From positions 7,274 to 71,273 of the forward strand of contig JBJOJZ010000079.1 in assembly GCA_046046325.1 (NCBI GenBank): DNA of 64,000 nucleotides, given 5' to 3'. Source of the stretch: Bacteroidota bacterium (GTDB lineage: Bacteria; Bacteroidota; Bacteroidia; Flavobacteriales_D; Crocinitomicaceae). The notes under the pieces are model-generated. The model saw nothing but the letters and a program-made list of their open reading frames with translations. It was not told where the DNA came from and made no database searches. Shown here one piece after another: positions 50,650 through 64,000 of the stretch; the first letter of the stretch is position 1, and each line of letters opens with the position of its first letter. The translations under genes were made by a program, and so were the position numbers.

Positions 50650-52122
50650 TCACTGCGTTTTATCTTCCATCAGGCGATTCAACCACCGCGCGGCAAGTAT
50701 TATTACTACTCCAGTAATTAGGGCGTAAATACTCAATTGTAAATAACCGTTGGTATAGCCATCTAAACGTTCGCTCAAGGGGGCTTTTTCATCAGGGTTG
50801 GACATTCCCGCACCCAAAATTCCTGCGACATACTGTCCGTAGGCGGAAGCTAAAAACCACATGCCCATCATGATTCCCCAAAGGTGTTTTGGCGACAATT
50901 TGGTCATTAAGGAAAGGCCAATGGGAGATAAGAAAAGCTCACCAATGGATATCACTAAGTACGCTATGGTGAAAATCCCCAATGAAGCGAGCCCGTCGCC
51001 ATCCAGCATAAAACGCATGGCATAAAAAAGGTAAAACGAAAGGCTAAGAAAAAGAAAAGCCAGACCGAATTTCGCGAAATAATTTGGCTCTAATTTTCGT
51101 TTATTCAACCACACCCATAGTAAACCAATCAGTGCACTAAAACAAATCACAAAAAATGAATTAGCGGAGTTATTCACTACATTCGGATCGATGTTAATAC
51201 CTAGCATATTACTTGAAACTAAATCCCGTGCGAATAAGCTCAAAGACCCCCCACTCTGCTCAAAAAACGACCAGAAAATTATGGATAATACAATGAAGAT
51301 CAACGCAGCACCCATTTTTTTAATCTGCATTTTATCCAGTTTGATCATCTCATAAATTACATAAACCAAAGTAACCGGCCCAATGATATACATGAATAAA
51401 TCGGTATACTCGGTTTTTCGAATCATGATATAAATCAAGGGTAAAACGGCCAGGGATCCAGCATAAACGTACCACCTATTTCTTCGATCTTTTAAAGGCG
51501 ATTCCGAGGCAGGTGAAATTCCAATCGGGCCTAAAAACCTCCGTGTTAGCAAAAAATTTAACAGCCCTATAGCCATAAATACACCCGACAATAAGAACGC
51601 AACATTCCAGCTGAAGGTTTTACCTACATAAACGCAAAGGCCACCTCCCAAGAGTGCGCCGATATTGATTCCAGCATAGAACAGGCTAAATCCAGCATCC
51701 CGACGCGTATCTCCATCACGGTACAACTCTCCCACCATGGTAGAAATATTCGGTTTGAAGAATCCCGTCCCCACGATAATTAAACAAATACCATAGAAAA
51801 AAAATTGTTTGGCATCAATTCCCATGACAACACTTCCTAGCACCATTAAAATTCCACCCCAGAGTAACGACCTCTGAAACCCAAGGATTTTATCCGCAAA
51901 TAAGCCTCCAACAAAGGTAAATGCGTAAACAAAAGCTTGTATGGCTCCATATTTCAAGTTAGCTGCATCATTTTTTATCAACAAGATATCCGTCATGAAA
52001 ATGACTAACATCCCGCGGTTACCATAAAAGCAGAAGCGTTCCCACATTTCAGTAAAGAACAAATACCAAATTTGTTTTGGGAATTTCCCTTTGAAGTCTT
52101 GAATTTCAGATAAACTAAGCAT
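50650..52122 (-). CDS. POT/PTR2-family proton-dependent oligopeptide transporter
   Basis: ExxERFxYY-type motif (TEMWERFCFYGNRGML), PTR2 block (GGLFADKILG; GFFKPNIST) and FWSFFEQSG. Confidence 0.88.
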   Translation of the reverse strand: MLSLSEIQDFKGKFPKQIWYLFFTEMWERFCFYGNRGMLVIFMTDILLIKNDAANLKYGAIQAFVYAFTFVGGLFADKILGFQRSLLWGGILMVLGSVVMGIDAKQFFFYGICLIIVGTGFFKPNISTMVGELYRDGDTRRDAGFSLFYAGINIGALLGGGLCVYVGKTFSWNVAFLLSGVFMAIGLLNFLLTRRFLGPIGISPASESPLKDRRNRWYVYAGSLAVLPLIYIMIRKTEYTDLFMYIIGPVTLVYVIYEMIKLDKMQIKKMGAALIFIVLSIIFWSFFEQSGGSLSLFARDLVSSNMLGINIDPNVVNNSANSFFVICFSALIGLLWVWLNKRKLEPNYFAKFGLAFLFLSLSFYLFYAMRFMLDGDGLASLGIFTIAYLVISIGELFLSPIGLSLMTKLSPKHLWGIMMGMWFLASAYGQYVAGILGAGMSNPDEKAPLSERLDGYTNGYLQLSIYALITGVVIILAARWLNRLMEDKTQ

Positions 52123-52138
52123 AATAATTAGGTTTATG

Positions 52139-52160
52139 AAAAAAGGCTCCGAAGAGCCTT
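52139..52160 (-). terminator. intrinsic terminator between the two POT genes
   Basis: Minus strand reads AAGGCTC-TTCG-GAGCCTT followed by TTTT. It lies 8 nt after the upstream POT stop and 16 nt before the downstream POT ATG. Confidence 0.7.
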
Positions 52161-52167
52161 AATTGAT

Positions 52168-54228
52168 TTATAACACGTTGTTTTCTTTCATTACACGGTT
52201 CAGCCAACGTAACATTAAAAACAATAATAAGGCGGCACCTAATACTAAGGCAAAATTCAGGTAAAAGAAATTTTGCTTACTGTTGGCATCAAAGCCTTCC
52301 CAAAGACTCGAAAGCATACCCGACATTTTGTTACCAACAGAAATGGCAAGGAAATACCCCCCCATCATTAATGCCGTGATACGTGGAGGACTTAATTTAG
52401 ATACTAAAGACAATCCCATCGGGGATAAACAAAGTTCACCAATGGTAATTACCCCATAAGACGCTAACAACCACATGGAGCCTGCCTTTGCACTTAACCC
52501 ATTGGTAGCAAACACGGCTCCCACCATGACAAGCGCCGACAAGGCCGTTATAACTAATCCGATGGCAATCTTAGCTGGCGTACTCGGTTCTTTTTTCTTT
52601 CTACGGAAAAAGCCCCAAATGCCAACCATAACAGGCGTTAATACGACCACCCAAAATGGATTAATGGATTGATAAAGCTCCGTTGAATACAATTTCAAAT
52701 TAGGTACTTCCGTATTGGATTTTTGAATTAATTGATTCTCGTTTAGGTAATCATATACATGTTGCGCTGATTGAAGCGCTAAAAGTTCCCCTTGCAATGC
52801 TTTTTGTTCAACGGTATCTTTAGCCTTAGCAAGTGCCGTCTCCGTTGCCTTAATTTGCTTGGAAGTCTCCGTTGCAAGCAGTTCGATTGATTTCTTGTCG
52901 CTGAGCACGCTTGGAAGTTGCTGACTTGGAGTTTCTGCTAATCGAATAAGCATTAATTTCTCCGAATCTTGCAAGATCGAATCGCTTTCAATGGTGGCAT
53001 TAAGGGCAGGTTCTATCTTATTGGCCTCTAAGGCAGGAATATCAGATTTCGATAAATTGGTGAAATACTTATACGATTTGTCGATACGTTCAATTTTCTC
53101 GGCACATTCCTTGAGGTTTTTAAAATCTTCCTTTGTTTCTTTCGGCAGTGCAGATTGAGTTACATTCAAAAAACTCATAGAGGCGTCATAGGAAGCTTTA
53201 TCTCGTATCATCGGACTGTTTTCAACCAACTGCGCCATGCCAGCAGCATCTGCTGCACCTGTTATACTCGAAGACATTTCACGATCTGTATAATCTTCAG
53301 CCCATACGGTAAGTGCATCCCCATTTTGATGAAATATCGCAAAGAATAAAATAACACAGGTAAATACCGCCAAAAGGGCCTTTATTGCACGACTTTCTTT
53401 AGCCTCTGATTTAAAGGCAAGGTAAATAAAGAAGCCAATAACCGGCAGACACCCGATAATAAATGCATCGTTCGTATCAGTTCCCAACAAATTCCCTGGA
53501 ATCAAGTAACCAATGATGCCAAAAACAAACATTGGAAGTACGGTTAAACCTAATATTTTAAGGGTTGACATATCCCCTTCCTGCAAGGGTTTTACCACAT
53601 CGTAATGCTTAATGTGTTTGTTCCCAATGGAGAAAATTACCACTCCCAACAACATGCCAACTCCTGCAGCAGCGAAGGCATGACCCCAACCGTAATTGAT
53701 TCGCATGAAAGCTGCAACAAAATTACATACGAAGGCACCAATATTAATTCCCATATAGAAGATGTTAAATCCAGCATCTTTTTTATCCTTCAAAGAATCT
53801 TCACTGTATAAATTACCTACCAAGGTTGAAATATTCGGCTTGAAAAACCCATTACCAAGAATGATGAGAAGAAGCGCCGCGTAGAAACTTGGTATGGTGT
53901 GCATCGCTAACATGAAATAACCAGCAGCCATCATCAATCCACCAATAATGATTGATCTTCGATAACCTAATAATCGATCGGCCAACAATCCTCCAATAAA
54001 CGGTGTTAAATAGACCAATCCTAAGTACGTACCATAAATATCCGATTTCAATTGACCATCAAAACCCATTCCCCCGTTGTTCCAACCGTCAAGCATATAG
54101 AGTGAAAAAATCCCGAGCATTAGGTAATACCCAAAGCGTTCCCACATCTCAGTTCCAAACATGAACCATAGTCCTTTCGGGTGACCGAAAAGCATTTGAA
54201 TTTCATTCTTATTGTTAGCGTTACTCAT
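52168..54228 (-). CDS. POT/PTR2-family peptide transporter with ~210-aa loop insertion
   Basis: TEMWERFGYYLMLG, GGLLADRLLG, GFFKPNISTLVG. There is a long hydrophilic helical insert between FFAIFHQNGDALTVWA and YQSINPFWVV. Confidence 0.85.
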   Translation of the reverse strand: MSNANNKNEIQMLFGHPKGLWFMFGTEMWERFGYYLMLGIFSLYMLDGWNNGGMGFDGQLKSDIYGTYLGLVYLTPFIGGLLADRLLGYRRSIIIGGLMMAAGYFMLAMHTIPSFYAALLLIILGNGFFKPNISTLVGNLYSEDSLKDKKDAGFNIFYMGINIGAFVCNFVAAFMRINYGWGHAFAAAGVGMLLGVVIFSIGNKHIKHYDVVKPLQEGDMSTLKILGLTVLPMFVFGIIGYLIPGNLLGTDTNDAFIIGCLPVIGFFIYLAFKSEAKESRAIKALLAVFTCVILFFAIFHQNGDALTVWAEDYTDREMSSSITGAADAAGMAQLVENSPMIRDKASYDASMSFLNVTQSALPKETKEDFKNLKECAEKIERIDKSYKYFTNLSKSDIPALEANKIEPALNATIESDSILQDSEKLMLIRLAETPSQQLPSVLSDKKSIELLATETSKQIKATETALAKAKDTVEQKALQGELLALQSAQHVYDYLNENQLIQKSNTEVPNLKLYSTELYQSINPFWVVVLTPVMVGIWGFFRRKKKEPSTPAKIAIGLVITALSALVMVGAVFATNGLSAKAGSMWLLASYGVITIGELCLSPMGLSLVSKLSPPRITALMMGGYFLAISVGNKMSGMLSSLWEGFDANSKQNFFYLNFALVLGAALLLFLMLRWLNRVMKENNVL

Positions 54229-57784: not shown

Positions 57785-58291
57785 TCAACGGTACAATTCA
57801 TAAGGAGAAACTTCAACGAGTTGTCCTTTGCGGTTTTTCACCAAATAGTTGACGTAATAACTGAGGTCATTCCCTCCTACTTTAACCTCCACGATTACCG
57901 CACTGGTGGAATCCACTTTAAACCTTGCGACATCTCCGGGTCTAAACTCTGTGATTTCCAGCACGCGGTCGCGGAGTTTTGCGTTGTAAATCACGGCTCT
58001 CATGGGATGGTAATAGTCTACCCAATCTTGCAAAGAATCACGCTTTTGAGTCATGCGCCGATACTCCTTTTGCATGGATTTAAGTTCCGAATTTAACTCC
58101 TTCATCTGTTCCTTAAAGACCTTGGCTTGTTGCTCCGAGTCGCGCTTTTGGTCCATTAAGGATTTAATCAGTAAAAAAATCAAAACAGCCACCATCAAAC
58201 CCACGACAGCGTAAATGACCATCTTGCTTAATTCCACTTTCTTGGGAGCTTCAGGAGGAAGAGTATTCATATCGTTTTCTAATTGTTGCAT
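57785..58291 (-). CDS. single-pass membrane protein with coiled coil and small C-terminal beta domain (unknown function)
   Basis: TM helix MVIYAVVGLMVAVLIFLLI, heptad-rich KEQMKELNSELKSMQKEYRRM and a C-terminal beta-rich ~60 aa. Lies 50 nt downstream of the 1119-aa gene with no promoter box or terminator between them. Confidence 0.65.
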   Translation of the reverse strand: MQQLENDMNTLPPEAPKKVELSKMVIYAVVGLMVAVLIFLLIKSLMDQKRDSEQQAKVFKEQMKELNSELKSMQKEYRRMTQKRDSLQDWVDYYHPMRAVIYNAKLRDRVLEITEFRPGDVARFKVDSTSAVIVEVKVGGNDLSYYVNYLVKNRKGQLVEVSPYELYR

Positions 58292-58341: not shown

Positions 58342-61300
58342 TTAAAAACCCAAGCCTTTAAATGCTTTAATCTCCTTGATTTTATGTTCAAATTCAGCAA
58401 GCACCTTTGGCAATTCCTGTTCGTTGTTCACAGGAACCCAATGCTGCAATTCAATTTTAGATGGAACGATTTTTTTACCCCAAAAGTCGACCCTAAAACC
58501 GGGCCATCCGAAAAAGGCTACGGGAATAATTTTGATGAATTTCGCATTGAAAGCGCTTTCAAAGGTGAGTTCTAAGGTGGAAAAACCATCGTTCAATCCT
58601 TCTAAATCGCTGAGCGTTTGCCAGTTCTTTTTATCCACGGAATACATGATATGAAAACGTGTTACATAACTTTTACCGTGAGGTGCTCCCTTAAGGACTA
58701 GTTGCGAAACGGACATTGCCTCGGGAAGTTCCACTTGCCACCATTGTTTATCGTCTTGCTTTGCGGCACACCAGTACGTTTTTTCATTAGAAATTAATGC
58801 GTGGTGGGCTTTGTAATTGCGGTTATAATCGGAAGAAGAGGTCATAACTGCCGAAGAATTGCTTAGGATCCAGTAAGGATCGTTCAATGCGGCCTCGCCT
58901 TTGGTTACAAATTTCCAACTTGAATCGTTATTGGCTTTATTCTGCATTTGTTCCATCAATTGCGCTCCTTTGAGGGAATCTCCGACGTGCAACACCACTC
59001 CCGCCATCATTTGATCTTGTTGGAACTCCAACCCCCAACCCAACCAATGCGCTACGCCCTTACCAGAATAAACATAATCCAAGAATCGATAACCTTTCAT
59101 CCAATTGCGTTCACGGGTGATGGTATTGGAGAAAAGTCCTTGAAGCGATGGATTAATTTCCTCCAAAACCTCCGCCATTGAATTACCGAAACGGGTTAAC
59201 ACGGGTTGGGTTAACTTCAATCCAAGGAATGAGACATACGATTTTGAACAAGCATCCGCCAAAGCAGTTAAAAAGAAGGAGGTCAAAGGTCGAGGGTCAA
59301 ATCGTTCCAAATCCTCCACTTTACATTGGACTAAAAACTTACTGCGTTTAAAGTGGAAACGTGCATTTTCAAACGATAGACCTTCCAAGGACTCAAGGAT
59401 TCTTTCAACAGGTTCATGGATTTCAGGTTGCAAATAACCCGCGCAGGAAATATAAATTAAGTAATTCAGTTCATTGTTAAAATAGTCTTGTTTGATTTGA
59501 AAACTAATGCACAAGGGATACCCTTTGATTCTTGGTCGGAATTCACGGGAAAAGTAACCCAAATGCACACTACCTTTCAAACCATCGTTAGAAAGTTGGT
59601 TGTCGCTCGAATCCTGGGTTTCCATTCCTTCATCCACTTCATCCCCCCCTTGGTCGGAAGGAAGGTCTTCTTCCGTGGCCTCACTTAAACCGCAACCCAA
59701 CAGAAGGTCTTCAAGGCTGGTTAGCTTACTCCTAATGAGCGCTTCATCTTGATCAATTACGTAAGACCCGTTGAGCATATTTTGGTAATCCCGGTTGACC
59801 GCCTCAAATACCCCCTTAAACAAGTTAAACGCGATATCAAAGCTATCGATAAGAACGGATGGATTGGCAATGATCTCCTCCACTTTATGGTAGAATTGAA
59901 TTTGATCAAATCCATAAATAAAATCATAGAACCAAGGAAAACGGCTCATCGACTCGGTAAAGGAGTAATAGGTGTTATTGTTCAGGCTGTCCCATAAAAC
60001 AAGGTTAGGGTATTTTTTCAAATCTTCCGAATACTCCATGGCGAAAGACTTCAAATGTTCTACAAAAACATTGAGAAGGAGCCCATAATTTTCTAAGTCT
60101 TTGTAATCCTTCCAATCAGGAAGATATCCAATAGCAGCGCCGCCGGACGAATAAAGGGAAAAGTGCAGGGCTAGAATTTTCTTACTGGGTAAATTCTTAG
60201 GATATAAGGTACACCATGCATACCCTGTCATAACGCCAATTTGCCAATTGTTTTGTTTGGTATCCCATTCGGAATCTTCGTCCAAACATAGTTTTGTTAA
60301 CCGAGATTGTACGAAATGGTCTAATGAAGCGAAAGCGGTACGATGCCAATATTCCTTGGTGCCGAATTTATACGAATCTTCCCTTATTTTAAAGATACTC
60401 TCCTTGGTTGCGTGTCTAAATACTCCCATACCAATCAACCACTTATGGGCTGCCATTAAACCTTGAAAATCGGTTAATTCCTCTATGGTAAACTGCAGTA
60501 CCTTATTCCTTCGAACCTCATCCGGGTCAACATTCAAGGCAAAGGTTCGTTCCAAAAAAACTTTATCAAATGTTACGTTATCCACCCCGTATTGTTGCCC
60601 GGTAAGTTTTAACAAAAATTCATTGTAGGTTTTCGTGGTTATAGCATGGTCAACGACCTCTATAAAACGTTTATCTACCTCCGGAAAAGGGTCTTCAATG
60701 TTCAACTCAGTTGCAACACTTACAATCAAGGCTTTCACTTGTTCCTTGGATAATCCCATGCGGGTTTTGCCAATAGACTCAAAGAAATTTAGCTCATCTA
60801 AGCTAATTTGTTCATCATCCAAAGCTGCCTTTATCGATTCTTTTAGATCTTCTACTGTCGCTTTGTTTCGGAGCTCCTCTTCTTCTTGACGTATTTTCTC
60901 AACGGCTTCCTTTCCAGCGCGAAGAAGCAATTTCCAATCCGAAAGCAACACGGTATCATTCGCCGCAAACACCTTAATACCTTCCGGATAATCGGCGGTT
61001 TTAGTTACTTCCAGAGGTTCGTTACTGTCTTCGCTGATCAGAGTAAGCACCCCCTGTTCGTTGCTGTCCACCACAAACTGACGAAACTCCCAAATCTTCC
61101 CAAGTTCATTGATTACCTGGTTTAAAGCGCTTTCTAAAAACGGGTTTGTTGCATCAAAATACTCCTCGCTGAAAGGCCAAGAAACTATTTTTCCTTTCAC
61201 TTCCTTGTGTGGATGAGCAACGCGATTTCTAAGTTGAATGAAAACATCAAAAAACTCCAACAAATTCACCTTTCCAAGGTTATTCTTAAGAGCCTGCGAA

Positions 61301-61701
61301 ATGAGGTCAGCGTAATTCGGTTGATCGTTTTCTACCGCTGATTTCAGCGCACCGTATGCTTTCACGAATTTGGATAATTCAGGAAGCTCGTTTGAACCGT
61401 GTAAAAGTTCTTGTATTTCTGAGGGTTGCTTTTGTTGATACAAAAACTTGGAGGACTCCCGAAGCCAACCCAAGTATATGCCAAAACTGACATTTTTACC
61501 ATTCTTTAAAAACGACTTCTCAAGTTCGATTGAAACCAAGCCCGTTTCTTTATACTCGCCCAAAACAAAAGAACATAGATGCATTACTAGGCTTTCACCA
61601 AGGTCCAATAGGTACTTTTGCTTGGCCGCTTTTTCTCGTGCCCTTGCTAAATCGCTGATCGTTTTCTCAAGGTTCTTGGGGAGTTGGTTCGTGATATTCA
61701 T
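58342..61701 (-). CDS. large cytoplasmic multidomain protein: N-terminal HEPN-like (RNxxAH) region and C-terminal discoidin/F5-8 type C domain (function unknown)
   Basis: Uninterrupted ORF with no signal peptide. Motif FFDVFIQLRNRVAHPH, with RNRVAH encoded at 61213-61230. Acidic linker around 59590-59700. Discoidin signature at 58477-58869 (TYWCAAKQDDKQWWQVELPEAMSVSQLVLKG...YVTRFHIMYSVDKKNWQ...AKFIKIIP...FRVDFWG). The start is set at the ATG at 61701 (MNITNQ) because the upstream ATG (61728) lies inside the -7 box. The gene itself is well supported; the functional labels are low confidence. Confidence 0.8.
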   Translation of the reverse strand: MNITNQLPKNLEKTISDLARAREKAAKQKYLLDLGESLVMHLCSFVLGEYKETGLVSIELEKSFLKNGKNVSFGIYLGWLRESSKFLYQQKQPSEIQELLHGSNELPELSKFVKAYGALKSAVENDQPNYADLISQALKNNLGKVNLLEFFDVFIQLRNRVAHPHKEVKGKIVSWPFSEEYFDATNPFLESALNQVINELGKIWEFRQFVVDSNEQGVLTLISEDSNEPLEVTKTADYPEGIKVFAANDTVLLSDWKLLLRAGKEAVEKIRQEEEELRNKATVEDLKESIKAALDDEQISLDELNFFESIGKTRMGLSKEQVKALIVSVATELNIEDPFPEVDKRFIEVVDHAITTKTYNEFLLKLTGQQYGVDNVTFDKVFLERTFALNVDPDEVRRNKVLQFTIEELTDFQGLMAAHKWLIGMGVFRHATKESIFKIREDSYKFGTKEYWHRTAFASLDHFVQSRLTKLCLDEDSEWDTKQNNWQIGVMTGYAWCTLYPKNLPSKKILALHFSLYSSGGAAIGYLPDWKDYKDLENYGLLLNVFVEHLKSFAMEYSEDLKKYPNLVLWDSLNNNTYYSFTESMSRFPWFYDFIYGFDQIQFYHKVEEIIANPSVLIDSFDIAFNLFKGVFEAVNRDYQNMLNGSYVIDQDEALIRSKLTSLEDLLLGCGLSEATEEDLPSDQGGDEVDEGMETQDSSDNQLSNDGLKGSVHLGYFSREFRPRIKGYPLCISFQIKQDYFNNELNYLIYISCAGYLQPEIHEPVERILESLEGLSFENARFHFKRSKFLVQCKVEDLERFDPRPLTSFFLTALADACSKSYVSFLGLKLTQPVLTRFGNSMAEVLEEINPSLQGLFSNTITRERNWMKGYRFLDYVYSGKGVAHWLGWGLEFQQDQMMAGVVLHVGDSLKGAQLMEQMQNKANNDSSWKFVTKGEAALNDPYWILSNSSAVMTSSSDYNRNYKAHHALISNEKTYWCAAKQDDKQWWQVELPEAMSVSQLVLKGAPHGKSYVTRFHIMYSVDKKNWQTLSDLEGLNDGFSTLELTFESAFNAKFIKIIPVAFFGWPGFRVDFWGKKIVPSKIELQHWVPVNNEQELPKVLAEFEHKIKEIKAFKGLGF

Positions 61702-61721
61702 GCTAAAGATAATCTGTAGGG

Positions 61722-61729
61722 CAAACATA
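61722..61729 (-). promoter_or_regulatory. candidate -7 box for the 1119-aa HEPN-motif/discoidin gene
   Basis: TATGTTTG on the minus strand. It contains the ATG of the longer track ORF. 20 nt to the ATG at 61701. Confidence 0.45.
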
Positions 61730-61807: not shown

Positions 61808-64000
61808 ATGAAGTTTCACTACCATTTTATCCCACAGGGTGCAAGGGCTACTCACAACCTTGAAGAAAACACATTTACGGTGGATTACAATGCCGGAACG
61901 CGTGATAAACCGAACGCTGTTGTATTGAAACTTCCTGCGGATCAGACGGTCATTTTGGATACGGGAAATTTACTCCAACCTGGAATCATCGACCACCATC
62001 AGCCCGGTTGTGAATACAGTAATCAGTGCGTGGCATCCATTGTTGTACAACATGCAGAAAAATATCTGGGACATTGCCTCGGCAAAGATGAAGTTCATAT
62101 CGTGACGCATTTCTTGCCCGATTTAGACGCCATAAGTGCGGTTTATTTTGCTCAAAAATTCCTCAGCGGCCAACCGTTCAGCGCATTCGACGGATTGTTT
62201 TGCGATTATGTTAACATGGTGGATTTAGGAAAACTCATCCTTGATCCAGATCATCCCGTTGGTATTGCTTCGCTCTGGTTAAGCCATACGTCCAATGTTG
62301 ATTACGGGATCGCCTTTACCCAGGACTTCAACAAAAAACTACTTCAACAAGGTTTATCCTTCATCGAAGCGGTAATAACCGTAACTGAAGAAGAAGAGAA
62401 CCCTTGGATCAACCACGGATTTGACGAAGTAGCAAGCCTTCAGCCTCATTGCGACAAAATCATCAATGATGCGCACCAGTACGCAGAAGATTTTAAAAAC
62501 TCAGTTACTGGAATTGTGGAACTATACAACGCTGAAACAAGAGGATTCGACGAGGTTGAAGTCATCATTTCGAAAGAAGCAAAGAGTTTTCTGTGGAAAT
62601 ATTGGGTGCGCGGTGATCGTCGAAACACCTTGTTTAAAAGAGGGTTTGTTCTCACTTGTTTGCACTATCCGAATAAATCGATTATCAGCGTTCCTTCCAA
62701 CCTCCCATATCACTTGAAAGGATTGGGATTGTACATCGATAGCCTTGAAATTAAAGGGCTTTTAGCGCATAAAAATCAGCCGGAACTAACGGCAGCAATT
62801 GATGCCTTGGTAACAGGTAGCGAAGGCACCCCGAGGGTTGGATTTCACCGAAACGATCCATGGTATGATGGGCGTGGGGCCCACAATTTCACCATCATCG
62901 ACGTTCCACGAGCCGGTAGCTTGTTGGACCACGAAACCCTTGACGCCTCCATCTTCGCCTATCGTTTATGGAATGAATTTGGTCAAAAATTTAACCTAAC
63001 ATCCTTGGATGTTGCATCCCAAGAAGCCTTGTCGGCGGTAGAAGAACTTGCATTGAACGAACGTCCCTATTTTAATAAAACCAATGACAATTCCTCACTG
63101 CATTCTCAGATTGACGCCTACCACATTCGATTGGGTGTTAAACAGGTTCAATACCTATTGAATTCCTACGTTGACCATACGCATGACTTGAGCGAACGAA
63201 ATGTACAAAGTATCAAAGAATGGGTGGAAACGGCGGGTAACCATATTGAAGCATTAGTGACCGAACCCAGTAACGACGTATTCATCAATTCGGATCGCAT
63301 CAAAGATTTCATGATGGAACTCCATCGGATTTCCTTTTCCCAGTATGCCTTTATTGTTAAAGTTCGGCATTGGAGCACGTTGTTGGCGAAATACATTGCG
63401 GAAGGATTCTCCTTTTTTCACTCAAGGGCGTTTGACGACCAAAAAAACGAGCTAGTTGAAAAGTTGGAGCCCTACATTAATCCGACGTTTGCGAGAACCA
63501 TGCTCGATGTGTGCCAAAGCCTACCGGTAAAATCGTTTTCGTTGCTCTTCATTAAAATCGAAAAGGACATTAAGAATTCCGATTTGTTTTACTCCTTATT
63601 GGCCTATCAGAGCGTTTTCAGTCGAGCGTTTTCTCCTCAGTCTATTCAAGAGTTTTTTACAGGTAACGTAAAAATATCTTCCGACTGTTCGGACCTGGTG
63701 GGTGCCATTGAATACGAAAAATGGGATGAACCTTTCTTTGAAGAGATACCATTGTATTCTTATAATAGCATCAAGAACTATGCTGACGATTTATTCCACT
63801 TGCTCGAAATGGAAAATCCGGGGGCTTTGAGAATGGAGGCTTTGCACGAATTCCAACAAACCGATTTTAAGCAAATCTTCGATGTTCAGTTGAACGCAAA
63901 TTCCCATAAATCCCTTGAAAAATTAACCACCTTTTTTTCGGAAAATAAACAACAAATAGTAAAACAACTTTTTGGGGAAAATTGCAAAAATTTACGCAAG
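61808..64000 (+). CDS. large ORF (at least 731 aa, 3' end outside window) with DHH/MYG1-like phosphoesterase motifs; absent from the supplied ORF track
   Basis: The ATG at 61808 is the first start after an in-frame TGA (61793-61795). I translated the frame by hand to nt 64000 (731 codons) without meeting a stop. Motifs: VILDTGN-x8-IIDHHQ (DHH at 61991-61999), HFLPDLDAIS (62108-62137), DGRGAHNF (62867-62890). A perfect -7 box lies 16 nt upstream. The gene itself is well supported; the functional label is low confidence. Confidence 0.8.
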   Translation, partial: MKFHYHFIPQGARATHNLEENTFTVDYNAGTRDKPNAVVLKLPADQTVILDTGNLLQPGIIDHHQPGCEYSNQCVASIVVQHAEKYLGHCLGKDEVHIVTHFLPDLDAISAVYFAQKFLSGQPFSAFDGLFCDYVNMVDLGKLILDPDHPVGIASLWLSHTSNVDYGIAFTQDFNKKLLQQGLSFIEAVITVTEEEENPWINHGFDEVASLQPHCDKIINDAHQYAEDFKNSVTGIVELYNAETRGFDEVEVIISKEAKSFLWKYWVRGDRRNTLFKRGFVLTCLHYPNKSIISVPSNLPYHLKGLGLYIDSLEIKGLLAHKNQPELTAAIDALVTGSEGTPRVGFHRNDPWYDGRGAHNFTIIDVPRAGSLLDHETLDASIFAYRLWNEFGQKFNLTSLDVASQEALSAVEELALNERPYFNKTNDNSSLHSQIDAYHIRLGVKQVQYLLNSYVDHTHDLSERNVQSIKEWVETAGNHIEALVTEPSNDVFINSDRIKDFMMELHRISFSQYAFIVKVRHWSTLLAKYIAEGFSFFHSRAFDDQKNELVEKLEPYINPTFARTMLDVCQSLPVKSFSLLFIKIEKDIKNSDLFYSLLAYQSVFSRAFSPQSIQEFFTGNVKISSDCSDLVGAIEYEKWDEPFFEEIPLYSYNSIKNYADDLFHLLEMENPGALRMEALHEFQQTDFKQIFDVQLNANSHKSLEKLTTFFSENKQQIVKQLFGENCKNLRK

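Follow-up and report, generated by a model that had tools for sequence, protein, structure and literature searches.

Here, we propose that gene A, which lies near the end of a 64,000-nucleotide (nt) stretch of a Crocinitomicaceae genome (contig JBJOJZ010000079.1, positions 7,274 to 71,273; "the window" throughout), encodes a protein that looks like a HEPN-type effector joined to sensor domains, inside an apparently undescribed modular gene system. This is based on the product being a conserved cytoplasmic protein of freshwater Flavobacteriales, having an invariant HEPN-type motif in its all-helical N-terminal domain (the N-domain), carrying a discoidin domain with no export signal, and being encoded beside a large membrane protein, B. 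Both the N-domain and the N-terminal domain of B recur elsewhere with STAND, TIR and HEPN genes. We consider it likely that the N-domain belongs to the HEPN superfamily, as a new family within it, and we lean, by a modest degree, towards A providing both effector and sensor in a conflict or defence-type module that has not been characterised so far.

The N-terminal domain and its HEPN-type motif

An earlier reading of this DNA from its letters alone (the sequence-only reading) had pointed to FFDVFIQLRNRVAHPH near the N-terminus of A and, within it, to RNRVAH as the possible catalytic helix of a HEPN ribonuclease (RNase). The sequence is present in A, with RNRVAH at the residues and nucleotides given then (Table 1). 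In an alignment of 31 full-length homologues, with identity down to 25%, R158, N159, H163 and P164 of LRNRVAHPH are invariant; among 33 divergent N-domains (identity down to 17%) the His is again invariant and the Arg and Asn are at least 90% conserved. The conservation of Arg and His on which that reading had made its claim depend is therefore found at both depths. It is this invariance, and not the presence of the motif, that carries weight, since R[NDH]xxxH on its own is no rarity (by our own estimate, ~0.15 such motifs are expected by chance in a protein of A's size). HEPN motifs have been described as Rx4-6H with a polar residue after the Arg, usually N, D or H (PMC3710099), and the N-domain of A shows that spacing, that polar residue and conservation throughout the family. 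Nearly all N-domains have the form RNxx[A]H, with one subgroup having RNx4H (Rx5H spacing), a variation that appears to be like the one seen within HEPN families (PMC3710099).

The predicted structure points in the same direction. An AlphaFold2 model of residues 1-225, built with 19 homologues, is all-helical and confident (predicted local distance difference test, pLDDT, 86.9; predicted template-modelling score, pTM, 0.83). Its elements are a helix at 9-20, a long helix at 24-53, a helical insert at 58-138, a helix at 147-162, a beta-hairpin at 165-174 and a helix at 179-201. RNRVA closes the third of the named single helices, H147-162, and H163 is the first loop residue. Three glutamates are invariant as well: E23, as part of Ex3K, and E36 and E49, both within predicted helix 24-53. 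The place of the motif at a helix end agrees with the published account of HEPN domains (PMC3710099). A conserved acidic residue in helix 2 and frequent inserts between helices 2 and 3 are published features of HEPN domains (PMC3710099), which the N-domain, as modelled, would fit in both sequence and secondary structure.

A search of 1.84 billion representative proteins with the N-domain profile returned 113 matches. The domain is mobile, being the N-terminus of many proteins of 550-1260 amino acids (aa) with other architectures, most of which also have the helical domain and the W-x6-WQ-x-G core of A. In some of 54 such proteins scanned against Pfam, it is fused to STAND nucleoside triphosphatases (NTPases; AAA_16, nSTAND3) with tetratricopeptide repeats (TPR) and to HSDR_N, and further to Eco57I/MmeI methyltransferases, DUF3320, GHMP kinase and FGE-sulfatase. 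When the 33 divergent N-domains were scanned singly against 24,736 Pfam models (E<=1), the families matched by more than one of them were HEPN_RiboL-PSP (6), HEPN_Apea (3) and Abi_2 (2). The best E-values were sub-threshold (0.0047 for HEPN_RiboL-PSP and 0.0097 for HEPN_Apea); the KEN domain (Ribonuc_2-5A) had one sub-threshold match, and all remaining families appeared once each. PADLOC models gave further sub-threshold matches, to CARF-HEPN_Csx20 (2, best 3.6e-4) and Cas13b (7.7e-4), and also to CARF_HEPN, RTasHEPN and Cas13-ApeA. Such a convergence of weak profile matches on one superfamily seems hard to explain otherwise.

Several results weigh against this assignment. No HEPN model in Pfam or PADLOC is matched above its curated threshold, and the window copy matches no HEPN model even below threshold. 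The motif helix may account for most of the sub-threshold signal. With Foldseek, the modelled N-domain had no significant match in the PDB (best E=0.17, template-modelling (TM) score ~0.2) or in the viral structures of BFVD (best E=0.31), and hidden Markov model profiles of the N-domain had no relevant match among PDB sequences. A word-indexed homologue search with a broad N-domain profile returned fragments of its own family only and did not connect it to annotated HEPN proteins. Structure and profile searches are known to perform poorly on small helical bundles. The HEPN reading made from sequence is thus upheld in part: relatives of the domain converge on HEPN models, including the RiboL-PSP family it had named, but the window copy itself does not, and no fold match was found. 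Likewise, of the fold comparison it had proposed, the AlphaFold topology agrees with HEPN, but Foldseek produced no significant match to a solved or viral structure.

The remainder of protein A

The reading frame of A, counted from its first ATG, spans 58342..61728 (-) and encodes 1128 aa. The second Met (61701, MNITNQ..., 1119 aa) is the start used in most of 84 full-length homologues. The 1119-aa frame called earlier is confirmed as a real gene. All homologues that come from genomes are in metagenome-assembled genomes of freshwater Flavobacteriales or Crocinitomicaceae. Protein A has no signal peptide, transmembrane segment or hydrophobic segment in 19-residue Kyte-Doolittle windows (maximum mean 1.29), and the nine residues added by the upstream ATG (61728) bring neither a signal peptide nor a transmembrane segment. 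Hence the absence of a signal peptide reported from sequence holds with either start. The protein also has no NTPase domain and no P-loop.

Table 1. Features of gene A and its neighbours (positions in the window; amino acid numbers from the 1119-aa start)
Feature	Position (strand)	Remarks
168-aa open reading frame, one transmembrane segment and a coiled coil	57785..58291 (-)	50 nt downstream of A
Gene A, soluble multidomain protein	58342..61701 (-)	1119 aa; stop codon 58342-58344
C-terminal tail ending G-[FL], aa 1077-1119	58345..58473 (-)	kept even in homologues without discoidin
F5/8 type C (discoidin) domain, aa 953-1062	58516..58845 (-)	Pfam E=4.5e-22
Two alpha+beta modules, aa 709-820 and 833-925	58927..59577 (-)	AlphaFold2; among the more variable parts
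Disordered acidic linker, aa 676-703	59593..59676 (-)	pLDDT <50; unconserved
Alpha/beta domain, aa 449-669	59695..60357 (-)	invariant W479, W486-Q487-x-G489, W496
Helical domain, aa 301-432	60406..60801 (-)	invariant QIS..E and DPFPEVDKR motifs
Single 41-residue helix, aa 256-296	60814..60936 (-)	AlphaFold2; well conserved
Small beta segment, aa 207-253	60943..61083 (-)	AlphaFold2; poorly conserved
N-terminal all-helical domain, aa 1-204, candidate new HEPN-superfamily family	61090..61701 (-)	AlphaFold, profiles
RNRVAH (R158-H163), putative catalytic Rx4H	61213..61230 (-)	C-terminal end of helix 147-162
Gene B	61808..64000 (+)	divergent from A, continues past the window end

The C-terminal discoidin assignment of the sequence-only reading is correct: F5_F8_type_C (PF00754) reaches 79 bits where the gathering score is 28.2, F5_F8_type_C_2 matches as well (E=3.9e-12), and phmmer against PDB sequences finds neuropilin b1/b2, the C domains of factors V and VIII, and CBM32. 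The domain is missing in two homologues (P0063 and P0064) and replaced in a third (P0084).

Between the N-domain and the discoidin domain, AlphaFold2 (residues 205-948; pLDDT 81, pTM 0.69) gives the elements listed in Table 1. The coiled coil corresponds to the single 41-residue helix, a putative coiled-coil or dimerisation element, and the acidic linker is where it was placed, as the only long segment of A with pLDDT below 50. A TerB-like repeat fares less well, with sub-threshold matches in 3 of 19 homologues (best E=0.035) but none to TerB (PF05099) at E<=1 for the window protein, and with TerB doing no better than the unrelated IDEAL domain, with which it is tied. The sequence-only reading had found about 350 aa with no recognisable motif, where structure comparison now points to a YktB/DUF1054-like domain: Foldseek of the central model against the PDB gave one credible match, Bacillus subtilis YktB (DUF1054, 2a8e; probability 1.00, TM(target) 0.55, E=0.036, 196 aligned columns). 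As the Foldseek output carries no query range, we place this match by size and fold type, and it would then belong to the alpha/beta domain at 449-669, whose core is common to most shorter relatives of A. By sequence, A has no Pfam match to DUF1054. Kinase-like Foldseek matches of the central region were dismissed as noise (probability <0.4, root-mean-square deviation ~10 A), and hhalign detected no internal repeats among the three alpha/beta regions.

Conservation is unevenly spread along A. It is high in the N-terminal half, where residues 1-432 include 33 invariant positions, and the C-terminal modules and discoidin domain are far more variable, the pattern expected of an effector joined to a diversifying recognition part. 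The statement that no described family has this architecture also stands, as no Pfam, NCBIfam or PADLOC family covers it.

Gene B, the wider gene system and the surroundings of A

The sequence-only reading did not mention the 1420-aa membrane partner that starts at nt 61808, or the STAND-linked system to which both proteins lead. What seems to be a stretch free of open reading frames upstream of A is gene B, which leaves the window at its end; on a 99%-identical contig (L001, 5662-9921(-)) it is complete. B consists of a strongly conserved N-domain of ~400 aa (BN), a long helical region and ~6 C-terminal transmembrane helices. BN has the motifs DTGN, DHHQP, THFxPDxDA, SFLWKYxVRGD, PWYDGR and HNxTIID. 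Its matches to Pfam DHH are sub-threshold (E=0.00076 to 0.04, under the cut-off of 28.1 bits), and the invariant DHHQP stands upstream of a motif-I-like HFxPDxDA, a non-canonical order for DHH. A relationship of B itself to STAND NTPases was considered and rejected, its middle region having no STAND NTPase homology and B having no P-loop.

The pairing of A and B is observed in three arrangements: divergent in the window, L001, L004, L009-13 and L015; in tandem with A first at the P0084 and P0079 loci; and in tandem with B first at L019. It is kept where A is only 25-30% identical to the window protein and B ~30%. On this genomic association, B is best read as a functional partner of A, perhaps regulating it or sensing together with it at the inner membrane, or acting as a second effector.

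BN searches yielded free-standing proteins of ~400 aa as well as proteins in which BN is joined to TIR_2 or to a protein kinase. On a 7.4-Mb contig (L030:8001-15820), BN, a 1363-aa STAND NTPase-TPR protein and an 838-aa A-like protein are tightly packed, the first two genes overlapping by 8 nt and the next gap being 1 nt; the third protein carries the N-domain of A (E=1.7e-68 against the A5 profile) together with its WQxG core. An A-like protein also adjoins a STAND NTPase at L029. Four loci (L033-L036; L033:7200-16258) have BN, a STAND protein (~1365 aa) and then a downstream 1226-aa protein; at L032:4257-13431, where STAND is also present, a 1221-aa protein lies just upstream of BN. These ~1220-aa proteins have a shorter N-terminus with RNKDAH, which hhalign aligns to the N-domain at E=1.4e-4 and 52% probability, so that its relationship to the N-domain of A is tentative. 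A homologue of them (32% identity) adjoins the A-B pair of P0084. At L031:1482-8089, after a TIR_2-BN fusion come a DUF4145 protein (a HEPN family; weak match) and a kinase-WD40 protein. Components of these distant operons gave only generic TPR and TRIP13-like ATPase matches in PADLOC v2, all on the STAND protein. A survey of bacterial STAND receptors includes proteins with an N-terminal effector and a sensor, one of them HEPN-like, and does not describe a BN-STAND-A system (PMC13581612).

Around A, a narrow Flavobacteriales/Crocinitomicaceae lineage has kept its synteny. The 168-aa open reading frame downstream is conserved in close relatives only; it may be co-transcribed with A, since the only terminator-like hairpin near the 3' end of A on that strand (57784-57770) follows it. 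At L004:10001-16875, otherwise syntenic, there are two tandem A paralogues (1121 and 1118 aa, both with ~64% identity to the window protein). Defence genes adjoin A in some loci (SIR2_2, GmrSD, GIY-YIG), as do genes for leucine-rich repeat (LRR) proteins. Loci lacking B have instead a conserved pair of 442 aa (with C-terminal transmembrane helices) and ~158 aa (L002:7349-9983 and the equivalent regions of L016-L018 and L021-L027), preceded in some cases by a SIR2_2 gene and by LRR and DUF4116 proteins. These two proteins were tried as counterparts of B and rejected, as hhalign shows no homology. A gene for an outer-membrane barrel (DUF481, or Phenol_MetA_deg in the P0084 lineage) recurs close to A, no more than a few genes away, in highly divergent loci with or without B (L001:4860-5666; L002:13761-14567; L005:9098-9838; also L016-L018 and L021-L026).

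Elsewhere in the window, two adjacent genes for PTR2/POT-family peptide transporters (50650-54228 (-), 490 and 686 aa) were noted, the longer having a large soluble insertion. Rfam and tRNA scans of the window for RNA genes were empty.

Possible role, alternatives and comparison with known systems

In light of these findings, what might A do? If the N-domain is a new HEPN family, its RNase site would be built from R158, N159 and H163 and would need no metal, as is the case for other HEPN enzymes. Dimers with a composite site are the usual active form of HEPN RNases, and the adjacent 41-residue helix may pair two copies of A. The variable C-terminal half, with its YktB-like domain, two alpha+beta modules and discoidin beta-sandwich, would serve in ligand recognition; binding of an invader- or stress-derived ligand would free the RNase, and the ensuing RNA cleavage would cause growth arrest. 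In the distant relatives, the same two domain families would be wired via a separate STAND NTPase-TPR switch. Recurrence of the N-domain and BN with STAND, TIR, restriction-modification and HEPN genes is, as far as gene context can be read, a signature of conflict systems. A broader and more tentative proposal, which we do not favour over its negation, is that A and B are the Flavobacteriales version of an undescribed, scattered modular immune system made of BN, an NTP-dependent switch and a HEPN-type protein with interchangeable sensors, among which a cytoplasmic discoidin domain would count in this case; here, the STAND NTPase-TPR switch would be replaced by the helical and six-transmembrane region of B.

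A different role would be that of an RNase particular to this lineage that serves housekeeping or the response to stress, much as Ire1, RNase L, Las1 or Swt1-type HEPN proteins do. It would process or degrade cellular RNA when its C-terminal domains sense an endogenous ligand, would possibly be tied to the envelope via B and the barrel, and would have no part in anti-phage defence. Such a role is the main rival to a conflict or defence-type module, and several of our results count for it and against the latter. Gene A keeps its chromosomal position, its GC content is the same as that of the rest of the window, and a tblastn search with A drew no match from plasmids or phages; the gene looks vertically inherited within one lineage. 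NCBIfam and PADLOC scans matched no family in either A or B, around half of the A loci are without B, and the recurring DUF481 or Phenol_MetA_deg genes are not explained by a defence model. However, housekeeping does not sit well with the company that the N-domain and BN keep elsewhere (STAND, TIR, restriction-modification and HEPN genes), with the variable neighbours and tandem duplication of A or with its fast-diverging C-terminal half, and we regard it as unlikely, if worth keeping in mind. Should the N-domain not be a nuclease, the RNxxAH helix would be structural or ligand-binding and A a large non-catalytic adaptor or sensor. The missing above-threshold HEPN match, the complete lack of one for the window copy and the lack of a Foldseek neighbour would all suit this, and non-catalytic HEPN-like domains are known (PMC3710099); inactive HEPN domains, however, usually lose the motif (PMC3710099), whereas here exactly the three catalytic-type positions are invariant over a wide divergence with Rx4-5H spacing typical of HEPN, and the weak matches fall on at least 8 HEPN-containing models with no other family recurring. 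We therefore judge a non-catalytic role to be rather improbable.

Discoidin domains are mostly extracellular, which raises the question of whether A works outside the cell. A secreted-toxin reading was rejected because any export signal is absent. A wider version would have A exported, as a toxin or a surface protein whose discoidin domain binds extracellular glycans, by an unconventional route via B and the barrel; it could appeal to those two membrane neighbours and to the conserved G-[FL] tail. Yet neither start gives A a signal peptide or hydrophobic segment, and A has no C-terminal domain of the type IX secretion system, though a neighbouring gene has one. The toxin-like domain is N-terminal, unlike in polymorphic toxins, no conserved immunity-like gene is present, and relatives are fused to cytoplasmic STAND NTPases. 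Export of A is thus most improbable.

If an intracellular effector-plus-sensor module is the right reading, A would represent a new HEPN RNase family and an unusual case of a discoidin domain working inside the cell, probably as a sensor, BN would be a new partner domain travelling with TIR, kinase, STAND and HEPN proteins, and together they would be a candidate defence system in abundant, uncultured freshwater Flavobacteriales, with components absent from the PADLOC v2 defence-system catalogue.

Among characterised proteins, the resemblance to YktB (UPF0637/DUF1054, 2a8e) is one of fold, in the central domain only, and is uninformative on mechanism because YktB itself has no known function. 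Unlike typical F5/8 type C or CBM32 domains, the discoidin domain of A is a dispensable terminal module on a signal-less, cytoplasmic-type protein. Ire1 and RNase L offer an analogy, as multidomain sensors with a KEN-type HEPN RNase that ligand-driven dimerisation activates, and A may work similarly; A differs in being bacterial and cytoplasmic, with its HEPN-like domain at the N-terminus instead of the C-terminus and no kinase or pseudokinase. As in Dsr1, in the Streptomyces HEPN-like protein that has the Avs7 sensor in common (PMC13581612) and in Avs/STAND proteins, a conserved N-terminal domain, here the putative effector, is joined to a large, faster-evolving, non-enzymatic region, and relatives of the N-domain are fused to or encoded beside a STAND NTPase-TPR protein. 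In contrast to these proteins, A has no NTPase or P-loop, its sensor region is unrelated, no PADLOC model covers it, and its defence role is putative. At the motif level, A is closest to the HEPN families (RiboL-PSP PF18735, Apea PF18739, Abi_2/AbiD-F PF07751). It departs from them in its much larger insert (~80 aa), the beta-hairpin after the motif, its own invariant YP, GEY, S-x-G, WP and NP-x-L, and the N-terminal position of the domain in a 1100-aa protein, and it passes none of their curated thresholds. With these families A shares R-N-x3-H at a helix end and, as modelled, would share a conserved acidic residue in the long helix before it and an insert of helices between core helices, and its N-domain relatives share with them conflict-type contexts and recurrent sub-threshold profile matches.

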